A stretch of 11,841 nt of DNA from Candidatus Heimdallarchaeota archaeon (GTDB lineage: Archaea; Asgardarchaeota; Heimdallarchaeia; JABLTI01), in the NCBI GenBank assembly GCA_019056785.1, contig DXJV01000080.1, positions 1-11,841 of the forward strand, given 5' to 3'. The translations under genes were made by a program, and so were the position numbers. Under the pieces are notes generated by a model, which did no database searches, was not told the DNA's origin, and saw nothing but the letters and a program-made list of their open reading frames with translations. Shown here one piece after another: positions 1 to 11,841 of the stretch (positions within the stretch are counted from its first letter, which is position 1; every line of letters starts with the position of its first letter).

Positions 1-753
1 ATCTCTTACTCTCGAGTCATTTGCAAGTTTCTTATGGTGCCATTGCATGTGTTCAGAGAAAATCTTGTACCAGCGGATTTCCAAGCGTGAAAGAACAACA
101 GCAATAACAATTGCCCCGGCAAAAATTAATACTGCTGCAAGAAAGAAAATTGCTGTTATAAGAGAAGAATCTAAAACAGTGATACTATCAACGACAAAGG
201 AAACCCCACCAAAAGCAAACATTGCCAAAGAGCCCAAAAGGAACAAGTCTAAAAGAACGTATGACCAAAAAATTGTTTGGCCTTTTTGAGGAAGAGGATG
301 GTCTTCTTGATAGTTAGGCATGTGAAGGAGATGCTGGCGCAGTTTCTTATAGCGAGTATATTGAAGAAAGGGAATAAAAAAAACATTTAATGTCACGAGT
401 AAGAGAGTAGCAACAAACATATCAGTAGTGGTACTAAGTTCATTTTTCCGGTGCGGAAGATACCAATGGTCATTAAGTGCTTTTAGAGATTCGAGGAGAT
501 AAATGAAATAGGAAATCCCAAAGGAAAACGGTCCGAGAAGAATCATTTCTTTGCAGTTAATTTTCCGGATCGGGACTTTCGTTGAAGTAATCTTTGGTTT
601 GCGGGGTGGCTTTGTGGGGAAATATTCTTCCAAGTAATTAAAGAGCTCTTCTCTTGTGAAACGGTCTCTTTGGACAGCAAAACAATGCGGGCAAATGGGT
701 TTTGTTTCCGGAATGGGTTTGTGGCAATTAGAACAATGATAAGGCAAAGACAT
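1..753 (-). CDS. Zinc-ribbon membrane protein (N-terminal CxxC..CxxC plus about 4 TM helices, DUF4234-like); 3' end runs off the window
   Basis: Not in the ORF track. Manual translation from ATG at 753 is open for 251 codons to position 1: MSLPYHCSNCHKPIPETKPICPHCFAVQ..., then hydrophobic segments (ILLGPFSFGISYFIYLL; FVATLLLVTLNVFFIPFL; IFWSYVLLDLFLLGSLAMFAFGGVSFVV; LITAIFFLAAVLIFAGAIVIAVVL). An in-frame GTG at 756 is an alternative start. The DUF4234 resemblance is by eye. Confidence 0.85.
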   Translation of the reverse strand, partial: MSLPYHCSNCHKPIPETKPICPHCFAVQRDRFTREELFNYLEEYFPTKPPRKPKITSTKVPIRKINCKEMILLGPFSFGISYFIYLLESLKALNDHWYLPHRKNELSTTTDMFVATLLLVTLNVFFIPFLQYTRYKKLRQHLLHMPNYQEDHPLPQKGQTIFWSYVLLDLFLLGSLAMFAFGGVSFVVDSITVLDSSLITAIFFLAAVLIFAGAIVIAVVLSRLEIRWYKIFSEHMQWHHKKLANDSRVRD

Positions 754-1037
754 CACCAGAGCTTGTACCAAGTAGATTATTTTTAAGTCTCCACTAATAA
801 AGTCTTACATTTTGTATTAATAGTTCTTTCTTCTATACCTTCAATAAGTGAGAAAAACATTTCCAAAGTGATGGTTAGAAGCATGAAAAAACTTGAATGG
901 AAAATGTTAATGTTTAAATAGACTATTAGACCATTTCAAAACAACAAAATGTCTTTCAAGAGCGAAAGTCATTAGTAATCAAGGGAGAAAAAAAAATTCT
1001 TTTTCAAACTCCAAATCGGAAAAAAACGGAGAAAAAA

Positions 1038-2441: not shown

Positions 2442-3587
2442 ATGCAGAATATAAATGTCATTATCGATGCCCTTGCAATCCCTTTCGGCTCAATTGCGAC
2501 AATTGTTATTATTTCTAAAAACAAACGAAATGTTGTTAATATTCTCATGGGTTTAACTGTGTTTTTTGGTAGCGTGGCGAGTATAATTTTTGCTTTGTTA
2601 AAAGAACTTTATTTTTTCCATAACCTCTCCTTGGCTATTTTTTTCGCCAAAATGACCTATTTCTGCATTTATTTTATGACAATTCCGGTGTTCCACTTTT
2701 CCATCTTTTTCTGGCGCTCCCAAAATAAGAACATTCCTCGTTTCCTTCATTTTCTTGTTTTCTTACCAATCCTCTCTCTGTCTCTCTGGCTTTTTCTGCA
2801 ACAGGATATTATCCACCTGTCAGACATCTATCTTGGCGATAAATTCTATATTGTTTTTAATTATGTTTCAATCCCCTTTACAATCTATTCCAGTGTTATC
2901 ATGCTTTTCACAGTAGTGTTATTAATCGTAGAATTACAGCTCATAGCCCAAAGGACAAAAGACTTTCCGAGTTTAAAAAGGCGAATGCATATTTTAGCAG
3001 CAGTCTTTGCTCTGGGCTTTCTAGGGAGTTTAGTATCAATTTTCTTTGTTCAATTTTTAACTTCTAAAGTGAAATATCAACCAGCTGTTATTTTTGTCAT
3101 AGCGTCAACAATCAGCATTTCACTCATTCTCCTCAAAACGATAAGTCGTGAACACCGAAAACTTTGGCATGGCTGTCCTAAACTCCTCAGAGAAAAAGAT
3201 GGAACAACTTATTGTTTAAATACGCCAGATGGTGTTCCTAAACAGGTGAAATTACTGGACCTTGGTAATATTATTGAGAAAATCCAAATCGAGGTAGATA
3301 TTTTAAGAACGGGCGAAGAGAATTGTGCTAATGTCCTGTTTTCTGATGATGAGAATAATGTTCGATGTTTAACTACACATGAGTATATAATGGTGCTTGA
3401 TGAAATTGTTCAGCAAAAAGAGATGGAACTTGCTCAAGAAATGGATATTATGGAAAACAATAAACTCTGCTCAGAGTGTCTGCACAAAATTATTGCCTAT
3501 CGCAAAACCCACAAGGATAAATCAGACGCTGAAATCCGGACGTTCTTTTTGGGCGTCCGTGCGGAAGAATTTTTCGGCCTTGTTTAA
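2442..3587 (+). CDS. 7-transmembrane sensor-like protein (HisKA_7TM-like N-terminal region) with a C-terminal Cys-rich soluble domain
   Basis: Seven hydrophobic segments in aa ~5-232, with the basic loop plus Asn (SKNKRNVVN) after TM1 that is typical of prokaryotic 7TM sensor domains. The soluble tail has GCPKL...YCLN, NCANV...RCLTTH and CSEC motifs. No kinase H-box or GHKL motifs. Confidence 0.8.
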   Translation: MQNINVIIDALAIPFGSIATIVIISKNKRNVVNILMGLTVFFGSVASIIFALLKELYFFHNLSLAIFFAKMTYFCIYFMTIPVFHFSIFFWRSQNKNIPRFLHFLVFLPILSLSLWLFLQQDIIHLSDIYLGDKFYIVFNYVSIPFTIYSSVIMLFTVVLLIVELQLIAQRTKDFPSLKRRMHILAAVFALGFLGSLVSIFFVQFLTSKVKYQPAVIFVIASTISISLILLKTISREHRKLWHGCPKLLREKDGTTYCLNTPDGVPKQVKLLDLGNIIEKIQIEVDILRTGEENCANVLFSDDENNVRCLTTHEYIMVLDEIVQQKEMELAQEMDIMENNKLCSECLHKIIAYRKTHKDKSDAEIRTFFLGVRAEEFFGLV

Positions 3588-4078
3588 ATTTTCCAACTTG
3601 ATGAATGATATGTCCGAACAATCGGATCAAAGTTCACAAGAAGTTCTAAATCACTATATGCTATTCGCCCAATTCTAAAGGTAGCTTTCTTGCAATTTAA
3701 TAACTCTCGAGATAATTTTCCTTCTTCAACCAAAGATTGAATGTGAGGAAATGTATAGCCCCGTTTCAGCGTGGTAAAAGGTTTGAGAACAATTTGATTG
3801 CCGATTTTAGATGCCACTTGAAAGATAAATTTAATCTGATCAGGCGAGTGAGGAATTAAAGCGTTGCAATAGACAACGATATAATCATTAATTTTCACCT
3901 CGTGAAAATCAGAGTTGTGCTGAAGGGCAAGATTATCCAGCGTGAAACGATTATGCAACAAAACATCCTCTGCAAAAATTGGCATACCATGCCTGTTATC
4001 GAATTTTGCTCGTGAGTAGTTTTTTCTTGTGCTGTCCACCTTAATTAAGAAGGCGTCTGCTTTTTTAAGAACAACCAT
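3584..4078 (-). CDS. Stand-alone EVE/PUA-like domain protein (putative nucleic-acid binder)
   Basis: Pattern FHEVKINDYIVVYC...IKFIFQV...IVLKPFTTLKRGYTFPHIQ...IGRIAYSDLELL follows the EVE layout (xKxGD-hhhY...hhGhhxV...VxhxxxxxLxxPhxL...hxxhxxxxhxhh). ATG at 4078 is preferred to the TTG at 4090. The CDS is well supported; the fold call is by eye. Confidence 0.65.
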   Translation of the reverse strand: MVVLKKADAFLIKVDSTRKNYSRAKFDNRHGMPIFAEDVLLHNRFTLDNLALQHNSDFHEVKINDYIVVYCNALIPHSPDQIKFIFQVASKIGNQIVLKPFTTLKRGYTFPHIQSLVEEGKLSRELLNCKKATFRIGRIAYSDLELLVNFDPIVRTYHSSSWKI

Positions 4079-4255
4079 TTTTCCCAACAAAACTCTTTAG
4101 CAAAGTTCTAGCTTTAAATGTTTCCTATTTCTTTGCTCAAAAAACCGGTGTCTCTCTCCTGAAATTTTGCTCTTTGCTTTTTTTATTTTCTCTTTTAGCG
4201 AAAAGTTAAAAGTAAAAATAACGAATACCATTTTATAAGTCTAAGGTGAACAGTT

Positions 4256-5185
4256 TTGCATGATTTGATTAGCATTAAATATTCCGACCTTGCCGATGCA
4301 CTCTATTATTTTGAATTTATGGGCCCTCTCTATAAGCGGATCAAATGGCTCGAACGTGACAAAAATGTTTTCCAGCTTTACAAATTGATCCGCGAAATCA
4401 AATTCCCGAGGTTTAAAAATTTCCTCCCTTATACACGCTTTGTATCCATAAGCAATGATATTTCGTCGCCAACTCAATTGGCAAAACACATCCGTGACCA
4501 CCCCCCCAAAGGCAAGTTTGCCGAGAAATGGGTGGCAGAGTATGAGAAGATGCGGGATATTCTCCGGGAGATTTACAACTATTTCATGAAAAATGTTCTT
4601 ACTAATGAAAAGAAAGAAGAGCTGGAAAAGCTCCGGAAAAAAATCGAAAAGAAATACGGGAAAATTTGGCACAAATTAAAAGTCGAGTCTGAAAAATTGC
4701 CGGGAATATCCTGGAAGCGAAAGAGCCCTATTGTCTGTCTTCTCTATCCTCTTGATGGCAAACTTTCCCATAAACTCAAATTTTCAGATATCGCCTTTAT
4801 TGAGACTTCGCAAGCAATGGTGGATGATGAGGCGCTCTTTTTACATGAAGTGGTAAAATTACTAAATTACACAAAACCTGTTGGCTCCTGGGTCCGGCAA
4901 GATAGGCGAGGCATTCGAGCCATTGCATATGAAATCTTTACAGAATTACAAACATTGAAAATCGTAAACGCACTCTTTGATAAGAAACCCAATTATAAAA
5001 CAGTTATTAATTTAAAGCTGGATTCCATTTGGATCCCCTTCATCCGCCCTGAGACCTCCCTTGATGAAGATGAACTCGAGCGTGTCTTAGCAAAAGCTTA
5101 CAAAAAAATTAGTAAGCATGAATATGATGCAATGTTTCAAATGAGTGAGCTCTACACTGAATTAAATATCATCCTTCTCACCTAA
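4256..5185 (+). CDS. Hypothetical soluble protein, possibly a degenerate zincin-like fold (HEVVK in place of HExxH)
   Basis: 309-aa ORF with a TTG start 6 nt after AGGTGA (4244-4249). LFLHEVVKLL (HEVVK at 4844-4858) follows beta-strand-like segments (PIVCLLYP, IAFIET) and precedes a helix with a Glu (AIAYEIFTEL). The CDS is confident; the function is tentative. Confidence 0.75.
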   Translation: MHDLISIKYSDLADALYYFEFMGPLYKRIKWLERDKNVFQLYKLIREIKFPRFKNFLPYTRFVSISNDISSPTQLAKHIRDHPPKGKFAEKWVAEYEKMRDILREIYNYFMKNVLTNEKKEELEKLRKKIEKKYGKIWHKLKVESEKLPGISWKRKSPIVCLLYPLDGKLSHKLKFSDIAFIETSQAMVDDEALFLHEVVKLLNYTKPVGSWVRQDRRGIRAIAYEIFTELQTLKIVNALFDKKPNYKTVINLKLDSIWIPFIRPETSLDEDELERVLAKAYKKISKHEYDAMFQMSELYTELNIILLT

Positions 5186-5225
5186 AATTAAAGGGGAAAA
5201 ATGCGCAATTTCATTTGCATATTTT

Positions 5226-5273
5226 TTTATAAGAAAATCAAACAAATAAACATTAGTATCAGATATTTGGTGA
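5226..5273 (+). promoter_or_regulatory. Putative TATA box (TTTATAAG, 5226-5233) and Shine-Dalgarno site (GGTGA, 5269-5273) for the gene starting at 5282
   Basis: Archaeal TATA consensus about 50 nt upstream of the ATG, and an SD 8 nt upstream of it. Confidence 0.5.
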
Positions 5274-5281
5274 AAAAAAAC

Positions 5282-5761
5282 ATGAATGAGGAAATATTCT
5301 ATTGCCCCTATTGTGGTGCGTTGCAAAAGAAAGGGCAGCAGTTTTGTAGCTCTTGTGGTGCCTCCTTAGAGTTTTCTGATTCTCCTCCTCAAGAGGAAAA
5401 AAAGGTTCAAATCATTAAAGAAACACCTGTTGTTGAAAGTGCATCTGTAACAACACCACAACCGCAACCATCTCCGTATGGTGCCTATCCTTCGGCGGTG
5501 CCTTCAACTCCTGCCGCTCCAGCAAGAGATAATGCAATAATTGCTCTTATTCTTGGAATTCTTGGCTTCTTTGTAAATTGCTTTATCTTTCCGATATTCG
5601 GTTTAATTTTTGTGAAAAAAGCAGAGGAGAATAATGAGGACAGAGGAATAACTGTTGCAGCAAAGGTTTTAAATTGGATTTTAATGGGCTTAACAATTCT
5701 TTCCATTATCGGACTAATAATCTATTTAATTCTCTTTTTCACAATAGGCTTTTCTTACTAA
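5282..5761 (+). CDS. Zinc-ribbon / Pro-rich linker / 2-TM (DUF4190-like) membrane protein
   Basis: MNEEIFYCPYCG-x9-CSSCGASL zinc ribbon, linker PQPQPSPYGAYPSAVPSTPAAP, then AIIALILGILGFF...IFGLIF and A-K-V-L-N-W-I-L-M-G hydrophobic helices typical of DUF4190-like domains. Start moved from 5201 to 5282 on the SD and TATA positions. Confidence 0.85.
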   Translation: MNEEIFYCPYCGALQKKGQQFCSSCGASLEFSDSPPQEEKKVQIIKETPVVESASVTTPQPQPSPYGAYPSAVPSTPAAPARDNAIIALILGILGFFVNCFIFPIFGLIFVKKAEENNEDRGITVAAKVLNWILMGLTILSIIGLIIYLILFFTIGFSY

Positions 5762-5859: not shown

Positions 5860-6516
5860 TTATCGAAAAATGCTCCGAATGAATGGATGTAAACCAAACC
5901 GTTCAGAGCCATCTAACTCTTCGAATCGTTGTAGATACTGCTTCTGTTCCAAAAGGTTGATTAGTTCTTCTGCGTCTCGCTCCGAGATTTTGAGATATTG
6001 AATTATATCCGTTAAAGTAACTCGTCTTTTATATCTGATGAAGGAAATCAATCGTGCTTCATTCGAATTGAATTGAAATTTAGGGCTGTTAGCAATTATT
6101 GGCTGCTTGAAAAAGGTGCTTTGATTCTCTTCCTCTGTAAGGCCAAAGATACGAGATACTGTTGGTTCTATTTTCCGGAAGATATCAATGGGGATTGGGT
6201 CACCTGAATTGAAAACCTCATTTTTAAACAGCAAATGGAATTGATCGGCAATTCTGACCAATCGTTTGTACGTGAGAGGGGCATGGTCAAGAGTATCCGT
6301 GCAAGCAACAAAAATAATGTGGTTGCTCATCTTGAACACAAAACGGAATTTATTGGTTTCAATCCATTTGATTTCAACGTCAAAAATGCCTACAAAAGAA
6401 TTCACCGCACTTAGAAAACCGCTTACGAGATTTTCGTCATTCGTGTTATTATCATATTTTTTGTGGAAAAGACAAGTCCCTGATTCTTCCAAGATCCAGA
6501 TCTGTTTTAAGCCCAC
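5860..6516 (-). CDS. Asgard-type longin domain protein fused to a C-terminal winged helix-turn-helix
   Basis: aa 1-125: IWILEESGTCLF...DENLVSGFLSAVNSF...IKWIETNKFRFVF...IIFVACTD...LVRIADQF...F is the longin beta-beta-alpha-beta-beta-beta-alpha-alpha pattern. aa ~148-210: EARLISFIRYKRRVTLTDIIQYLKISERDAEELINLLEQKQYLQR...ERFGL is a wHTH. GTG start with AGGTGA at 6529-6524. Confidence 0.85.
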   Translation of the reverse strand: MGLKQIWILEESGTCLFHKKYDNNTNDENLVSGFLSAVNSFVGIFDVEIKWIETNKFRFVFKMSNHIIFVACTDTLDHAPLTYKRLVRIADQFHLLFKNEVFNSGDPIPIDIFRKIEPTVSRIFGLTEEENQSTFFKQPIIANSPKFQFNSNEARLISFIRYKRRVTLTDIIQYLKISERDAEELINLLEQKQYLQRFEELDGSERFGLHPFIRSIFR

Positions 6517-6682: not shown

Positions 6683-6738
6683 GACTACCTTTGCTTCAGT
6701 ACTAAAAGAAAAATTGCTAAACAAAATTAGTGGTTAAA

Positions 6739-8361
6739 ATGGCTCACGAATTTGACTTTGGAGATGATAGCGGGGAAATAATCGGTCGTGGAACATGGAT
6801 CGACAAGCTTGCTGTTGAAGTCATCAAACGAAAAGATAACTTGCCAGGCAAACATCCTGAGGTGATTCGCACCGAAAGTGGGTTGGGCGCTTCCGGTTTC
6901 CCGCATATTGGTTCGTTTGCTGACGCATCTCGCGCTTATGCATTCAAACTTGCCATCGATGATCAAGGAAGAAAAGCAGAATACATTGCTTTTGCAGATG
7001 ATTTAGATGGCTTGCGGAAGGTTCCAGCGGGTACTCCTCCTGAACTAGCTGAGCATCTCGGAAAACCTGTTTCCATGATCCCTGACCCTTGGGGTTGTCA
7101 TAAAAGTTATGGACAGCATATGTCTTCCTTGCTTATTGAAGCACTCGAGATAGCCGGCATAGAGTTTACTGCTGGTTCGGCCTATGAATTTTACAGTTCA
7201 GGAAAAATGGCTCCCCAAGTTAAAAAAGTATTAACAAAGGCTTCTCTTGCAGGCCAAATTATTAAAGAGACAACAGGCCAAGAAAAGTATCTTAAAGCCC
7301 TCCCCTATCATGCCATTTGTAAACAATGCGGGCGGATTTACACCACAAAGGCAATCAGTTTTGACGCTAAAAAAGGGCTTGTTGAGTATATTTGTAGTGG
7401 TGATGAGATCAAAGGTAAACAGCTCAAGGGTTGTGGCTATCATGGCTGGGCTGATATCTCCAAAGCAGAAGGAAAATTAACCTGGAAGGTAGAATTCGCC
7501 GCAAGATGGCACCTCCAGCAAATTGATTTCGAAGCTTTTGGCAAAGATATCTTTGAATCGGTCATCTGTAACGATAAAATCAGCCGGCAAATTTTCAAGT
7601 ACGAACCTCCTGCCCATGCACGCTATGAAATGTTCCTTGATAAAGGCGGGTCAAAGATTTCAAAATCTGCTGGAAATGTCTTTACACCGCAAACATGGTT
7701 CCGCTATGGTTCACCTCAATCTCTGAATCTCTTAACCTATAAGCGAATGACTGGGAGCAGAACACTTGCAATAGACGATATCCCTATTTACATGAAGGAA
7801 TTAGACTACCTCGAAAGTGTTTATTTCGGTCGCATTAAAGAGAAGAACCAAGCGAGAAAGCGAAAGTTGCGGGGACTATATGAGTATTGCTGGCATTTAC
7901 ACCCACCCGAAAAGATGTCCATTCAAATACCATACGCTCTCCTTGTTAATCTCCTCTCGGTTGCTCCAGAAAATAAAAAATACGAGTTTCTTGAATCTCG
8001 CTTGATCGAATACGGCTATCTCAGAGATGGAGCGACAATCAATGATGTTAAAGAACGAATCACCTTCGCCGAAAATTGGGTGGCTGACTTCAAGCAACTC
8101 GAGGAATTTAAGCTCTCCCTCACTCCAGAGCAAAAAGCTGCGCTGAAATCTTTGGTGAAAGTGTTGGAAAAAGTAAAAACAGCAGACGAAATTCAGACCA
8201 GCATTTTTGAAACGGCTCGGAAGCACGAGCTAAAACCCGGTGACTTTTTCAAATTGTTGTATAACATTTTACTTAACACCAATCGTGGACCTAAACTGGG
8301 GCCTTACATTCATACGATTGGTACCAAATTAGCCATTCAAAAAATTCGAAAACAACTCTAA
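6739..8361 (+). CDS. lysS: Class I lysyl-tRNA synthetase
   Basis: HIGH-type motif SGFPHIGS, DDLDGLRKVP, IPDP, CKQCG...C...GCG zinc region, KLTWKVEFAARW, DFEAFGKD, KMSKS-type KISKSAGN, and C-terminal anticodon-binding FFKLLY..LL....GPKLG. ATG at 6739 or GTG at 6730. Confidence 0.97.
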   Translation: MAHEFDFGDDSGEIIGRGTWIDKLAVEVIKRKDNLPGKHPEVIRTESGLGASGFPHIGSFADASRAYAFKLAIDDQGRKAEYIAFADDLDGLRKVPAGTPPELAEHLGKPVSMIPDPWGCHKSYGQHMSSLLIEALEIAGIEFTAGSAYEFYSSGKMAPQVKKVLTKASLAGQIIKETTGQEKYLKALPYHAICKQCGRIYTTKAISFDAKKGLVEYICSGDEIKGKQLKGCGYHGWADISKAEGKLTWKVEFAARWHLQQIDFEAFGKDIFESVICNDKISRQIFKYEPPAHARYEMFLDKGGSKISKSAGNVFTPQTWFRYGSPQSLNLLTYKRMTGSRTLAIDDIPIYMKELDYLESVYFGRIKEKNQARKRKLRGLYEYCWHLHPPEKMSIQIPYALLVNLLSVAPENKKYEFLESRLIEYGYLRDGATINDVKERITFAENWVADFKQLEEFKLSLTPEQKAALKSLVKVLEKVKTADEIQTSIFETARKHELKPGDFFKLLYNILLNTNRGPKLGPYIHTIGTKLAIQKIRKQL

Positions 8362-8369
8362 TTCAGCAG

Positions 8370-9410
8370 CTAACTTTTTTTTGTTAGCTCTTCCTCCTTT
8401 TTCCCTATTTTTTGAAAGTCAATTTTTAATGGTTGCTTGTCATTTGAGAGAATGACAACCTTGCTGTCTTCCATCTCGTAAACGAGTTTATACTCAGGCA
8501 ACCCCTCAAGAATCTTATTTGCAAAAGCACGAATTTCTTCATGAAAGGGCATGTTCCCTCGCGTGACCCGGTACTGAGAAAAGCCAACATGGACATAGCC
8601 CTTAATTTCTATAAATGCGGGATGAGCTTTTTTAATTAAAGCTACATATTCTACTGGGTTTTTCATGTTCAATTCTTTCGCCATCGTTAGGCGAGTAACC
8701 GTTCGTCCGCCTAACTCTCCAAGCAACTCGAGGCTTTTATTTAATCGGTCCCAGCCATTTTGAATTATAGGTTTGCAAACATGTAAGTAGTCCTTTTTAT
8801 TCGGGGCAGGAATCGTGATGTAGAGTTGTGTCGGTCGTACACCCGTGGTAATCATTTTCGAAATGCTTTCAGGCATTGTTCCGTTGGAAACGAGAAAAGT
8901 AGATAAGCCTTTTGCATGTAAAAGTTCAAGGAGTTCTGTAAGGAAAGGATAAAGAGTGGGTTCTCCGGCCAAGCTTAATGCTACATGCTGTGGGTCCATT
9001 GCCTGGTCAAAAAGCTCTTTCGGAACAATCGGCTTGTAGCCGGAAATGGCTCGTTTCCATCCCCAGAGCAATCCCTTGTAGACTTCTTCTGGTGAGTCAA
9101 ATTCCGAATCGGGGACATTCCAGACCGGTTTTAAGCCTACATCTTTTTCTTGGAGGCGCCAGCAAAAAGTGCATTGATGGGTACACAGCAGTGTGGGCGT
9201 TGCTTGAATACACCGGTGGCTTTCTATCCCATAAGCGTTTTTATAACAATATTGCTCTTCTTTGAGATATTTGTGGGTCCAAAGGCATTTTTTTACTGCC
9301 ACTTGTTTTCCATAAAGCTGATAACCCTGTTTTTTCAAGCGTTCTTTGATTATAGGATGAATGACTGATTTTTTCTCAGGATTGAAACGCAAGTTTTCAT
9401 ACGCCACCAA
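8370..9410 (-). CDS. taw1: 4-demethylwyosine (imG-14) synthase Taw1/TYW1, radical SAM tRNA-modifying enzyme
   Basis: Radical SAM CxxxCxxC (CTHQCTFCWR); auxiliary-cluster/Schiff-base region KKCLWT...CYK..YGIESHRCIQATP; HVALSLAGEPTLYP; TFLVSNG; PTQLY; FIEIKGYVHVGFS; NMPFHEEI. No flavodoxin domain, as expected for the archaeal form. Start is TTG 9410 or GTG 9407. Confidence 0.97.
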   Translation of the reverse strand: MVAYENLRFNPEKKSVIHPIIKERLKKQGYQLYGKQVAVKKCLWTHKYLKEEQYCYKNAYGIESHRCIQATPTLLCTHQCTFCWRLQEKDVGLKPVWNVPDSEFDSPEEVYKGLLWGWKRAISGYKPIVPKELFDQAMDPQHVALSLAGEPTLYPFLTELLELLHAKGLSTFLVSNGTMPESISKMITTGVRPTQLYITIPAPNKKDYLHVCKPIIQNGWDRLNKSLELLGELGGRTVTRLTMAKELNMKNPVEYVALIKKAHPAFIEIKGYVHVGFSQYRVTRGNMPFHEEIRAFANKILEGLPEYKLVYEMEDSKVVILSNDKQPLKIDFQKIGKKEEELTKKS

Positions 9411-9416
9411 TTATTT

Positions 9417-10004
9417 TTAAGGTTTGGTCCAGACAAAACCGTAATAGCGGACTTCATTGTTAGAAAGAATAGTTGCAATAACAAATTTCTTTTTTACTGA
9501 GGTTGCCAATCGCCCTGCACGAATGAGTTCGAGGGCTGTTAATTTACTCCCGCGTGGGAGAGCAGAAATAACATACGGGGAATGATCAATTCCGGGTCCA
9601 TGTTGATAGACTGCAAAATCAGCACCAAATTTCAAACCAGGCCGGGGGACCAATCCTCTTCGTCGCATGTCTTTATAAATGAGCATCTTCTCTTCGAAGA
9701 GAGGGATCGTTCTTTTTCCAATTGTTTCCAACTCTTCTAGAGAAATTTTGTTCTCAGTTGTTGTTTTATAGATAATTATTCTTCGTTTTTCAAGTAAAAA
9801 GCATGCTTCTATTAAAGATAATTCCAAAGGACGATCAAAACTTTCGCCTTTTGGTTTGCGAATGCCAACAGGTTTGCCATAAAAACCACTTGCATACAAT
9901 TTCGAACCTTGATTATGCTCCCAAATCATTACTCTATCTTTCACCAGTTCTGCAAGAATGGGCATGGAACTGGTAGTAGATTCAGTTGGTTGCTTCATAG
10001 CCAT
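9417..10004 (-). CDS. endA: tRNA-splicing endonuclease (tRNA-intron lyase), catalytic subunit
   Basis: LELSLIEA; YKDMRRRG..PRPGLKFGADFAVY..GP..DHSPY; RLATSVKKK (Tyr-His-Lys catalytic triad); C-terminal YY...W.KP. ATG at 10004 has SD GAGGT at 10018-10014; the ORF-track start at 10007 is a TTG. Confidence 0.96.
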   Translation of the reverse strand: MAMKQPTESTTSSMPILAELVKDRVMIWEHNQGSKLYASGFYGKPVGIRKPKGESFDRPLELSLIEACFLLEKRRIIIYKTTTENKISLEELETIGKRTIPLFEEKMLIYKDMRRRGLVPRPGLKFGADFAVYQHGPGIDHSPYVISALPRGSKLTALELIRAGRLATSVKKKFVIATILSNNEVRYYGFVWTKP

Positions 10005-10031
10005 CAAAGTTCGACCTCTTAAGAGTTATCG

Positions 10032-10769: not shown

Positions 10770-10980
10770 TTCTCATCTTCCTAAAACAATTGCTCTGTTT
10801 GCTCGAAAAACACCTCGTTTGCTTTTTAACCTTTTAGATATACTCCAGAAATTTCTCTTAGTATTTTAAGAAAACGTTTTTCATACTTTTTATAACAAGA
10901 AAAAAGATAATATTAAAAGGAACTATTATCAATAAGGAATATCTATTTCAAACATGTAATTCGCTTGTTGGATGATTTTC

Positions 10981-11841
10981 ATGAGAAAAAGTACCTTTCA
11001 AGAATTTGCAGAAGTGGCGTCCAAAGAATATTCCAACCAAGCAAGAAAATCCTTGGAAGAAACACTCAACCATTTCGCTAAAGAAACAACAAGCGATGTT
11101 GTAAGACAGCTGGGGCTACCCCAAGTGTTGATGTTTTTCTCTTCCACAATAGCAAAGCAAAACCAAAATAAAGTCATCCAAAGCACAGATGTTGAAGAAG
11201 CATTTTCCCTTTTACAGTATTTACTCGAGCGTGACTTAAATTCTACTCTCCTTGTAAATGATGAGTTAAATCTTGGCTTGCCGTTTGCAATGAGACAACA
11301 AAACCGGCTAGCCATTCTTCTCAAAGTTAAGGGGAACATGAAAACAAAGAATAATCTTGACTCCAAGATCTCCAGACTTGTTGATTTCCTAAAAAGTCAA
11401 AAATTGGCCCAAAAACACATCAATCGTATTGTCACAGAGTTAAAAGCCACAATCTTGTTTATTGCAAGACTCCTCACTCTCACACGGTCTGCAAGGCGAT
11501 TGCAGGTTTCCAATGAGGATATAGATTTTGCCTATGACTTTGCTCGCTATTTGATTTTGCGTCTTGACTTGACGAAAATCAAGATTTTGACGACGCTTTA
11601 TTCAGTGGAAGATAAAGAAATTTGGGGAAAGTTCTCGAAAATTGTTTTTGATACAACAGCTTATGATCATTTGAGTAGCACAGCTTATGCGGGCTGGGAA
11701 AACGATCTACCAGAAGCTTTTGAGACCCTTAAACAATACATTAATTGTGCCTCGCGCCTATTTGTTTCAGCAATTTTCGGCTATTCGGAAATTTTTTGCG
11801 CGAGAAAGAAGATTTCCAGGGTAACTACCGATGAATTAACC
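10981..11841 (+). CDS. Hypothetical all-helical protein with three AAA+-lid/histone-fold-like repeats; 3' end runs off the window
   Basis: Not in the ORF track. Open for 287 codons from ATG 10981 (alternative ATG 10972) to the window end: MRKSTFQEFAEVASKEYSNQARKSLEE...IAKQNQNKVIQSTDVEEAFSLLQYLL...RSARRLQVSNEDIDFAYDFARYLI...FCARKKISRVTTDELT. Confidence 0.85.
   Translation, partial: MRKSTFQEFAEVASKEYSNQARKSLEETLNHFAKETTSDVVRQLGLPQVLMFFSSTIAKQNQNKVIQSTDVEEAFSLLQYLLERDLNSTLLVNDELNLGLPFAMRQQNRLAILLKVKGNMKTKNNLDSKISRLVDFLKSQKLAQKHINRIVTELKATILFIARLLTLTRSARRLQVSNEDIDFAYDFARYLILRLDLTKIKILTTLYSVEDKEIWGKFSKIVFDTTAYDHLSSTAYAGWENDLPEAFETLKQYINCASRLFVSAIFGYSEIFCARKKISRVTTDELT

Follow-up and report, generated by a model that had tools for sequence, protein, structure and literature searches.

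The stretch analysed here (the window) is the whole of an 11.8-kb contig, C54, in the Candidatus Heimdallarchaeota assembly GCA_019056785.1 (2.87 Mb, 82.5% complete). Its right-hand end holds the 5′ part of a truncated gene, which is real, conserved among Asgard archaea and present in single copy. The protein is made up of four homologous units of about 100 aa, and computation showed that it has no ATPase domain. The topology of the units is predicted, with good confidence, to be that of the lid or C-domain of AAA+ ATPases. The best overall explanation, and in our judgment a probable one, is that the truncated gene encodes a non-catalytic scaffold or adaptor composed of four lid modules. It seems to be a known fold in an undescribed architecture and an unannotated family.

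The open reading frame (ORF) is open from an ATG at 10972 or another at 10981 through the last base of the window. The ATG at 10981 is the start position that aligned with the first Met in 19 relatives. A previous annotation of this DNA (the sequence-only reading) had placed the ORF at 10981-11841, and the frame was indeed open to the window end. The six peptides it quoted were also found where they had been reported: three motifs at 11149, 11485 and 11794, and the helices preceding them at 11026, 11329 and 11644. The full ORF could be recovered, with its 3′ end on another contig of the same assembly, C6. The final 81 bases of the window match C6:286-366 at 95% identity. From base 286, C6 supplies the missing C-terminal 138 residues, which are 97% identical to those of P0002, a 401-aa protein that is 98% identical to the window protein and was used as its full-length proxy. 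Downstream of the gene end, C6 carries a TraB-family gene and then a convergent GPN-loop GTPase. In near-identical metagenome contigs the order is PhoU_div (leftward), the lid-repeat gene (rightward), TraB (rightward) and GPN (leftward). Because the gene order matches, we take C6 from base 286 as the true continuation of the window gene. The full-length product has ~398 aa counted from 10981, or 401 aa counted from 10972. Before the junction, C6:1-285 is unrelated to the gene and holds, on the minus strand, a piece of a P-loop gene of the AAA_24 type (Pfam E 9e-7). Genes of this type are common in mobile elements. Either C6 is a chimeric contig joined at 286, or it comes from a strain variant whose gene carries an insertion. 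The features of the gene are as follows (window coordinates unless a contig is named).

10981..11841, plus strand: 5′ part of the gene, 861 nt, residues 1-287; the remainder is lost at the contig end; alternative ATG at 10972
10981..11241, plus strand: unit 1; two helix-strand-helix motifs with a short helix in the hinge between them; helices of the model 5-13, 19-35, 38-43, 46-60 and 68-83; bridges 16-17 and 65-66
11149..11214, plus strand: motif 1, IAKQNQNKVIQSTDVEEAFSLL; end of helix c, loop/strand and start of helix d of unit 1
11242..11292, plus strand: linker between units 1 and 2, containing a small beta-hairpin; the least confident part of the model, with a predicted local distance difference test score (pLDDT) of 56-79
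11293..11583, plus strand: unit 2; helices 109-115, 120-139, 144-169 and 178-194; single bridges at 117 and 175
11485..11544, plus strand: motif 2, RSARRLQVSNEDIDFAYDFA
11602..11841, plus strand: unit 3, incomplete, its last helix lying beyond the contig end; independent E-value (i-E) 6e-11
11794..11838, plus strand: motif 3, FCARKKISRVTTDEL
C6:286-702: unit 4; its motif near the C-terminus, K-I-x3-H-I-x2-A-I-x-K-W, is of the same type
C6 (L002:367-702): remaining ~112 codons of the gene

Three repeats of ~100 aa had been described in the sequence-only reading. The repeats are real, but their number is four. A 28-sequence family alignment, with distant lineages included, was split into its four units, which were compared with hhalign. 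All six pairs of units aligned, over 77-95 columns and with scores of 25-56, while controls with reversed or shuffled columns scored 8-16. The P values were 8e-11 for units 1 and 2, 3e-9 for units 2 and 4, 2e-8 for units 1 and 4, 2e-6 for units 2 and 3, 1e-5 for units 1 and 3, and 2e-4 for units 3 and 4. Unit 3 is the most divergent of the four. The scores of the unit pairs were above those of the controls; therefore, the protein is a fourfold tandem repeat. The close subfamily (A2) alone gave a weak unit-to-unit signal, and the broader alignment was needed.

The absence of an ATPase core, which had been claimed for the visible part, held for the family as well. Neither the Walker A nor the hhhhD[DE] pattern occurs in the 287 visible residues, and no P-loop Pfam domain was found in the window protein or in the 28 family members. 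A single loose match to A-x4-G-K-[ST] was seen among the members, at residue 226 of P0022. The predicted full-length model is all-helical.

Models were built with AlphaFold2 on the family alignment. The full-length model had a pLDDT of 89 and a predicted template-modelling score of 0.88; window residues 1-205 folded alone gave 90 and 0.89, respectively. All four modelled units have the order helix, short strand, helix, an interruption that includes a short helix, and again helix, short strand, helix, so that a hinge lies between each unit's pair of helix-strand-helix motifs. In full-length numbering, the bridges are 19-20 with 68-69, 120 with 178, 225-226 with 283-284, and 317-318 with 376-377. 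Their lengths match within units (2:2, 1:1, 2:2 and 2:2), the partners being deduced from DSSP strings. The bridges of units 1 and 2 remained when units 3 and 4 were left out of the model. As deduced from the models, the bridges are most simply read as paired inside each unit. Three folds share the helix-strand-helix motif (Alva et al. 2007, PMC1847821). In the AAA+ C-domain, two consecutive motifs are joined by a hinge and the bridge forms between them within one chain; in the histone, the motifs are continuous via one long helix and the bridge forms between partners; in the Clp N-domain, each motif bridges to the symmetry-related repeat (PMC1847821). With the bridge partners as deduced, our model fits the C-domain definition of that study.

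The sequence-only reading had offered lid domains and fused histone folds as alternatives. The lid alternative gained from the topology and from the structure searches, in which lids came out on top; the histone alternative did not fit. In the latter, units 1 and 2 and units 3 and 4 would form handshake pairs of divergent histone folds, giving an intramolecular pseudo-tetramer for the binding or wrapping of DNA, comparable to viral histone doublets and quadruplets or to HMk of M. kandleri. We consider this improbable. Between the bridges of every unit there are two to four helices with breaks, whereas the histone has a single long alpha2. Bridges that persist in the half-protein model and match in length within units also speak against a histone handshake. 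Foldseek against the PDB, with either the full or the half model, returned nothing at E<=0.001. Its top rows were single-chain histone pairs with a template-modelling (TM) score of ~0.2 and a root-mean-square deviation of 16-19 Å, from which it seems that the local order of motifs is similar but the three-dimensional arrangement is not. The histone matches cover the second motif only, or ~80-90 of ~150 residues. The Pfam histones (PF00808, PF00125) matched none of the 28 members at E<=1.

Charge also bears on the histone alternative. The net charge of the members varies from -8 to +31, and only the Heimdall-labelled subfamily and a few members elsewhere have a strongly basic unit 2 (+6 to +13 in that subfamily). 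Such variation argues against a general role in wrapping DNA as histones do. A basic surface that binds DNA was considered as a conserved trait of the family and rejected; charge is not conserved.

Comparison with reference profiles of 30 Asgard MCM lids and 30 histones was not discriminating at the sequence level. Unit 1 matched both, the lid profile with P 5e-5 (68 columns) and the histone profile with P 2e-4 (46 columns); these were the best P values for either reference, and the histone match involved the second motif only. Motif 1 was aligned by hhalign with the second helix-strand-helix of the MCM lid. For the pooled units, the P value was ~1e-3 with both references, again over the second motif only. 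Because the lid and histone profiles match each other (P 8e-3), weak histone similarity is expected for any helix-strand-helix fold.

In the VIA exhaustive alignment against 48,161 chains, the top matches were almost exclusively AAA+ lids. The best lid superpositions comprised 57-91 residues at 1.8-4.2 Å with 10-23% identity, and extended across most of the domain of solved lids. In the ESM Atlas shape search the whole chain reached no more than TM 0.28, and one cluster, of MCM_lid, had a TM of 0.45 by target; the Atlas feature search had best values of 0.77-0.79, which is noise level. In sequence, no lid family matched at its Pfam gathering score, every match being sub-threshold. TIP49_C matched four members, at best with an E of 1.6e-4 and 22.2 bits (cut-off 24.5). 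The other sub-threshold matches on unit 1, 2 or 4 were to MCM_lid, the LonB lid and DUF3987, the last in its C-terminal part; AAA_lid families were sub-threshold, too. The match to the NCBIfam MCM C-terminal region had an E of 0.018. Taken as hints, these sequence matches nearly all point to lids. We also searched a pooled hidden Markov model (HMM) of the units against ~12,000 six-frame ORFs of its own genome. The best non-self match was to residues 222-278 of a MoxR-type ATPase (E 0.022), whose Pfam AAA_lid_2 domain spans 233-304.

These results also bear on two further alternatives. A lineage-specific helical repeat might have converged on a lid-like bundle, with no ancestry shared with AAA+ C-domains. 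We find this rather doubtful: three units each retrieved the lid class independently, over most of the lid, at 2-3 Å and 13-23% identity; the sub-threshold Pfam matches to lids fell on the correct segments; and the genome-wide search, which was blind, reached the MoxR lid. The units might instead be repeats similar to the Clp/Hsp100 N-domain, serving as a module that recognizes substrates or adaptors. Clp N-domain matches, however, ranked far below AAA+ lids and were missing from the top 50 for the N-terminal half, and no Clp_N match was found in Pfam. Repeats of this kind are thus very unlikely.

The protein belongs to no Pfam or NCBIfam family and has no significant match among PDB sequences; searching the family profile against all PDB sequences with hmmsearch gave zero matches, even at E 10. 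A word-indexed search found 23 relatives, mostly of 395-402 aa and 49-98% identical. The named ones, Heimdallarchaeota or "Asgard group" by label, are all "hypothetical". Searched exhaustively with an HMM, 1.84 billion cluster representatives yielded only 24 proteins at E<=1e-3. All of them are either ~391-440 aa long or contig-end fragments, and hence no fusion with an ATPase domain was detected among the 24. Distant members are named Hel-, Loki-, Odin- and Thorarchaeota, and include OdinLCB4_001545 of Odinarchaeum yellowstonii. Among the genomes sampled from the phylum, 21 of 81 have the gene as a single full-length copy, representing 13 of 36 genera. In some families every sampled member has it (9/9, 4/4, 3/3 and 2/2). 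In others it was not found, and among these are all ten sampled genomes of the same class. The ten (G003, G015, G026, G036, G045, G054, G062, G068, G074 and G080) include two single-contig genomes. Presence is thus patchy within the window's GTDB class, whereas more distant classes carry the gene. One in-frame stop was observed in each of two family matches, G037:C47:105292-106482 (TAA) and G046:C34:66543-67736 (TAG); these matches may overrun the gene end.

No column is invariant across the family. Only R192 and F196 (P0002 numbering), both in unit 2, are nearly invariant. An H-D-H motif at residues 231-233 of unit 3 is confined to the Heimdall-labelled subfamily; it was considered as a metal or catalytic site of the whole family and rejected for this reason. 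The Arg aligned to the sensor-2 Arg of MCM is kept in unit 4 only, with R in 18 members, K in 4, Q in 4 and H in 2 (n = 28).

As there is neither a nucleotide-binding core nor a family-wide set of conserved polar residues, we infer that the most likely function is that of a scaffold or adaptor. Fourfold tandem amplification of a ~100-aa module would have given a soluble, all-helical protein of ~400 aa. Its four modules would be packed as one rigid body, which would work, with no catalysis of its own, via protein-protein contacts. AAA+ lids natively dock on P-loop domains, and unit 4 often keeps the sensor-2-aligned Arg. On these grounds a P-loop NTPase can tentatively be proposed as the partner, although we would not bet on it. 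In MCM or MoxR-type rings, sensor-2 acts in trans. There is a small chance that the protein is a free-standing "lid array", four C-domains set free from their motor that act in trans, docking on and regulating one or more P-loop machines of Asgard archaea (e.g. MCM or MoxR-type rings), or else a living intermediate between lid bundles and multi-histone assemblies in the nearest prokaryotic kin of eukaryotes.

The genes around the family members form a conserved block. Across classes the order is [Arf-like GTPase][Roadblock][UppS-type cis-prenyltransferase], then the lid-repeat gene, then the convergent [ATP-grasp][GPN-loop GTPase][MoCF]. UppS is co-directional and <=5 kb upstream in 15 of 20 genomes (4/6 GTDB families), and directly adjacent in nine of them. 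GPN is downstream in 10 of the 20, and also in the window's own Heimdall-labelled subfamily. It might be supposed from this block that the protein serves a neighbouring enzyme as accessory subunit and is no NTPase adaptor, the enzyme being either the upstream cis-prenyltransferase or the convergent GTPase. However, the UppS link is missing in the window's own subfamily, the gaps of 69-111 bp permit separate promoters, and the GPN pair is convergent. Moreover, related genomes are non-independent samples, and gene order alone is weak evidence. We therefore regard an accessory subunit as unlikely and the conserved order as a lead, not as evidence of interaction. A complex prediction for a Thor-type protein with its upstream cis-prenyltransferase gave no answer (score 0.00) and weighs neither way.

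The gene is the last of a co-directional array in nine genomes of GTDB family f7 (L073-L078, L080-L082), and likewise in L008 and L071-L072; L075 and the Thorarchaeota-named L069 are one contig. The array consists of a Sec23-like gene, two Roadblock/LAMTOR-like genes, an Arf-like GTPase, another Roadblock gene and UppS, followed by the lid-repeat gene. The Sec23-like gene was seen in L008, L069 and L072 (the loci inspected for it exclude L073-L082). An SMC gene lies just upstream in L008, L069 and L071.

Among known systems, the closest is the AAA+ C-domain of the MCM/MoxR/Mg-chelatase clade (MCM_lid PF17855, AAA_lid_2 PF17863). The predicted topology of each unit, with a putative short intra-domain bridge, is alike, and the motif, a hydrophobic helix followed by x-x-V/I-x3-D-V/I-x2-A, is shared. 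Unlike the AAA+ C-domain, the units have no preceding P-loop alpha/beta domain, four of them stand in tandem in one chain and would be packed rigidly, each has an extra short helix in the hinge, and the sequence matches are all under family thresholds. To our knowledge, lid folds outside ATPases are rare. The closest precedent for a lid with no motor is Dpoe2NT (PF12213), the N-terminal domain of subunit B of DNA polymerase epsilon, reportedly the first such case (PMC2528186). Dpoe2NT occurs as one domain joined to OB and phosphoesterase domains, while the Asgard protein has four copies and nothing else; no significant relationship in sequence was detected between the two. Double histone folds and viral quadruplets (HMk 1F1E of M. 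kandleri, Melbournevirus doublets, SOS, Spt3; PMC13088155) are likewise tandem helix-strand-helix proteins, of ~4 x 100 aa. They share the type of C-terminal motif, together with weak structural and Foldseek matches. In the Asgard protein, by contrast, no alpha2 runs on as one long helix, the model suggests no handshake between units, superposition as a whole is poor, a basic surface is not conserved, and Pfam gives no histone match.

A literature search of limited reach turned up no earlier account of tandem-lid or lid-only proteins like this one. Made of four lid modules only, conserved in several Asgard lineages and placed in a gene block that is itself conserved, the protein seems to represent a new architecture for the lid fold. 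One ancient helix-strand-helix peptide is regarded as the source of the AAA+ lid, the histone fold and the Clp N-domain, and the protein offers a natural case of motif amplification. The unannotated family could receive a domain model. For now, the finding has its value in structure and evolution; should a partner be identified, it may show a new way to regulate or scaffold NTPase machines in the archaeal relatives of eukaryotes.

The other features of the window are as follows. Positions 6730-10007 form a tRNA-related cluster; a few kb beyond it, related contigs carry Trm5/Tyw2 and subunits of RNase P.

1038-2180: LVIVD-repeat protein
5201-5761: zinc-ribbon/DUF4190 protein
6730-8361, plus strand: class I lysyl-tRNA synthetase
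8370-9410, minus strand: Tyw1 wyosine radical-SAM enzyme
9417-10007, minus strand: tRNA-splicing endonuclease

Four ORFs of 168-381 aa had no Pfam match at E<=0.001: 1-771 (minus strand), 2442-3587 (plus), 3584-4090 (minus) and 4256-5185 (plus). At 5860-6516, on the minus strand, there is a 218-aa protein with a first longin domain of the Fuz/MON1/HPS1 type (E 8e-6). It has the look of a eukaryote-like trafficking protein, and occupies the same relative position in the related contigs L005 and L006.
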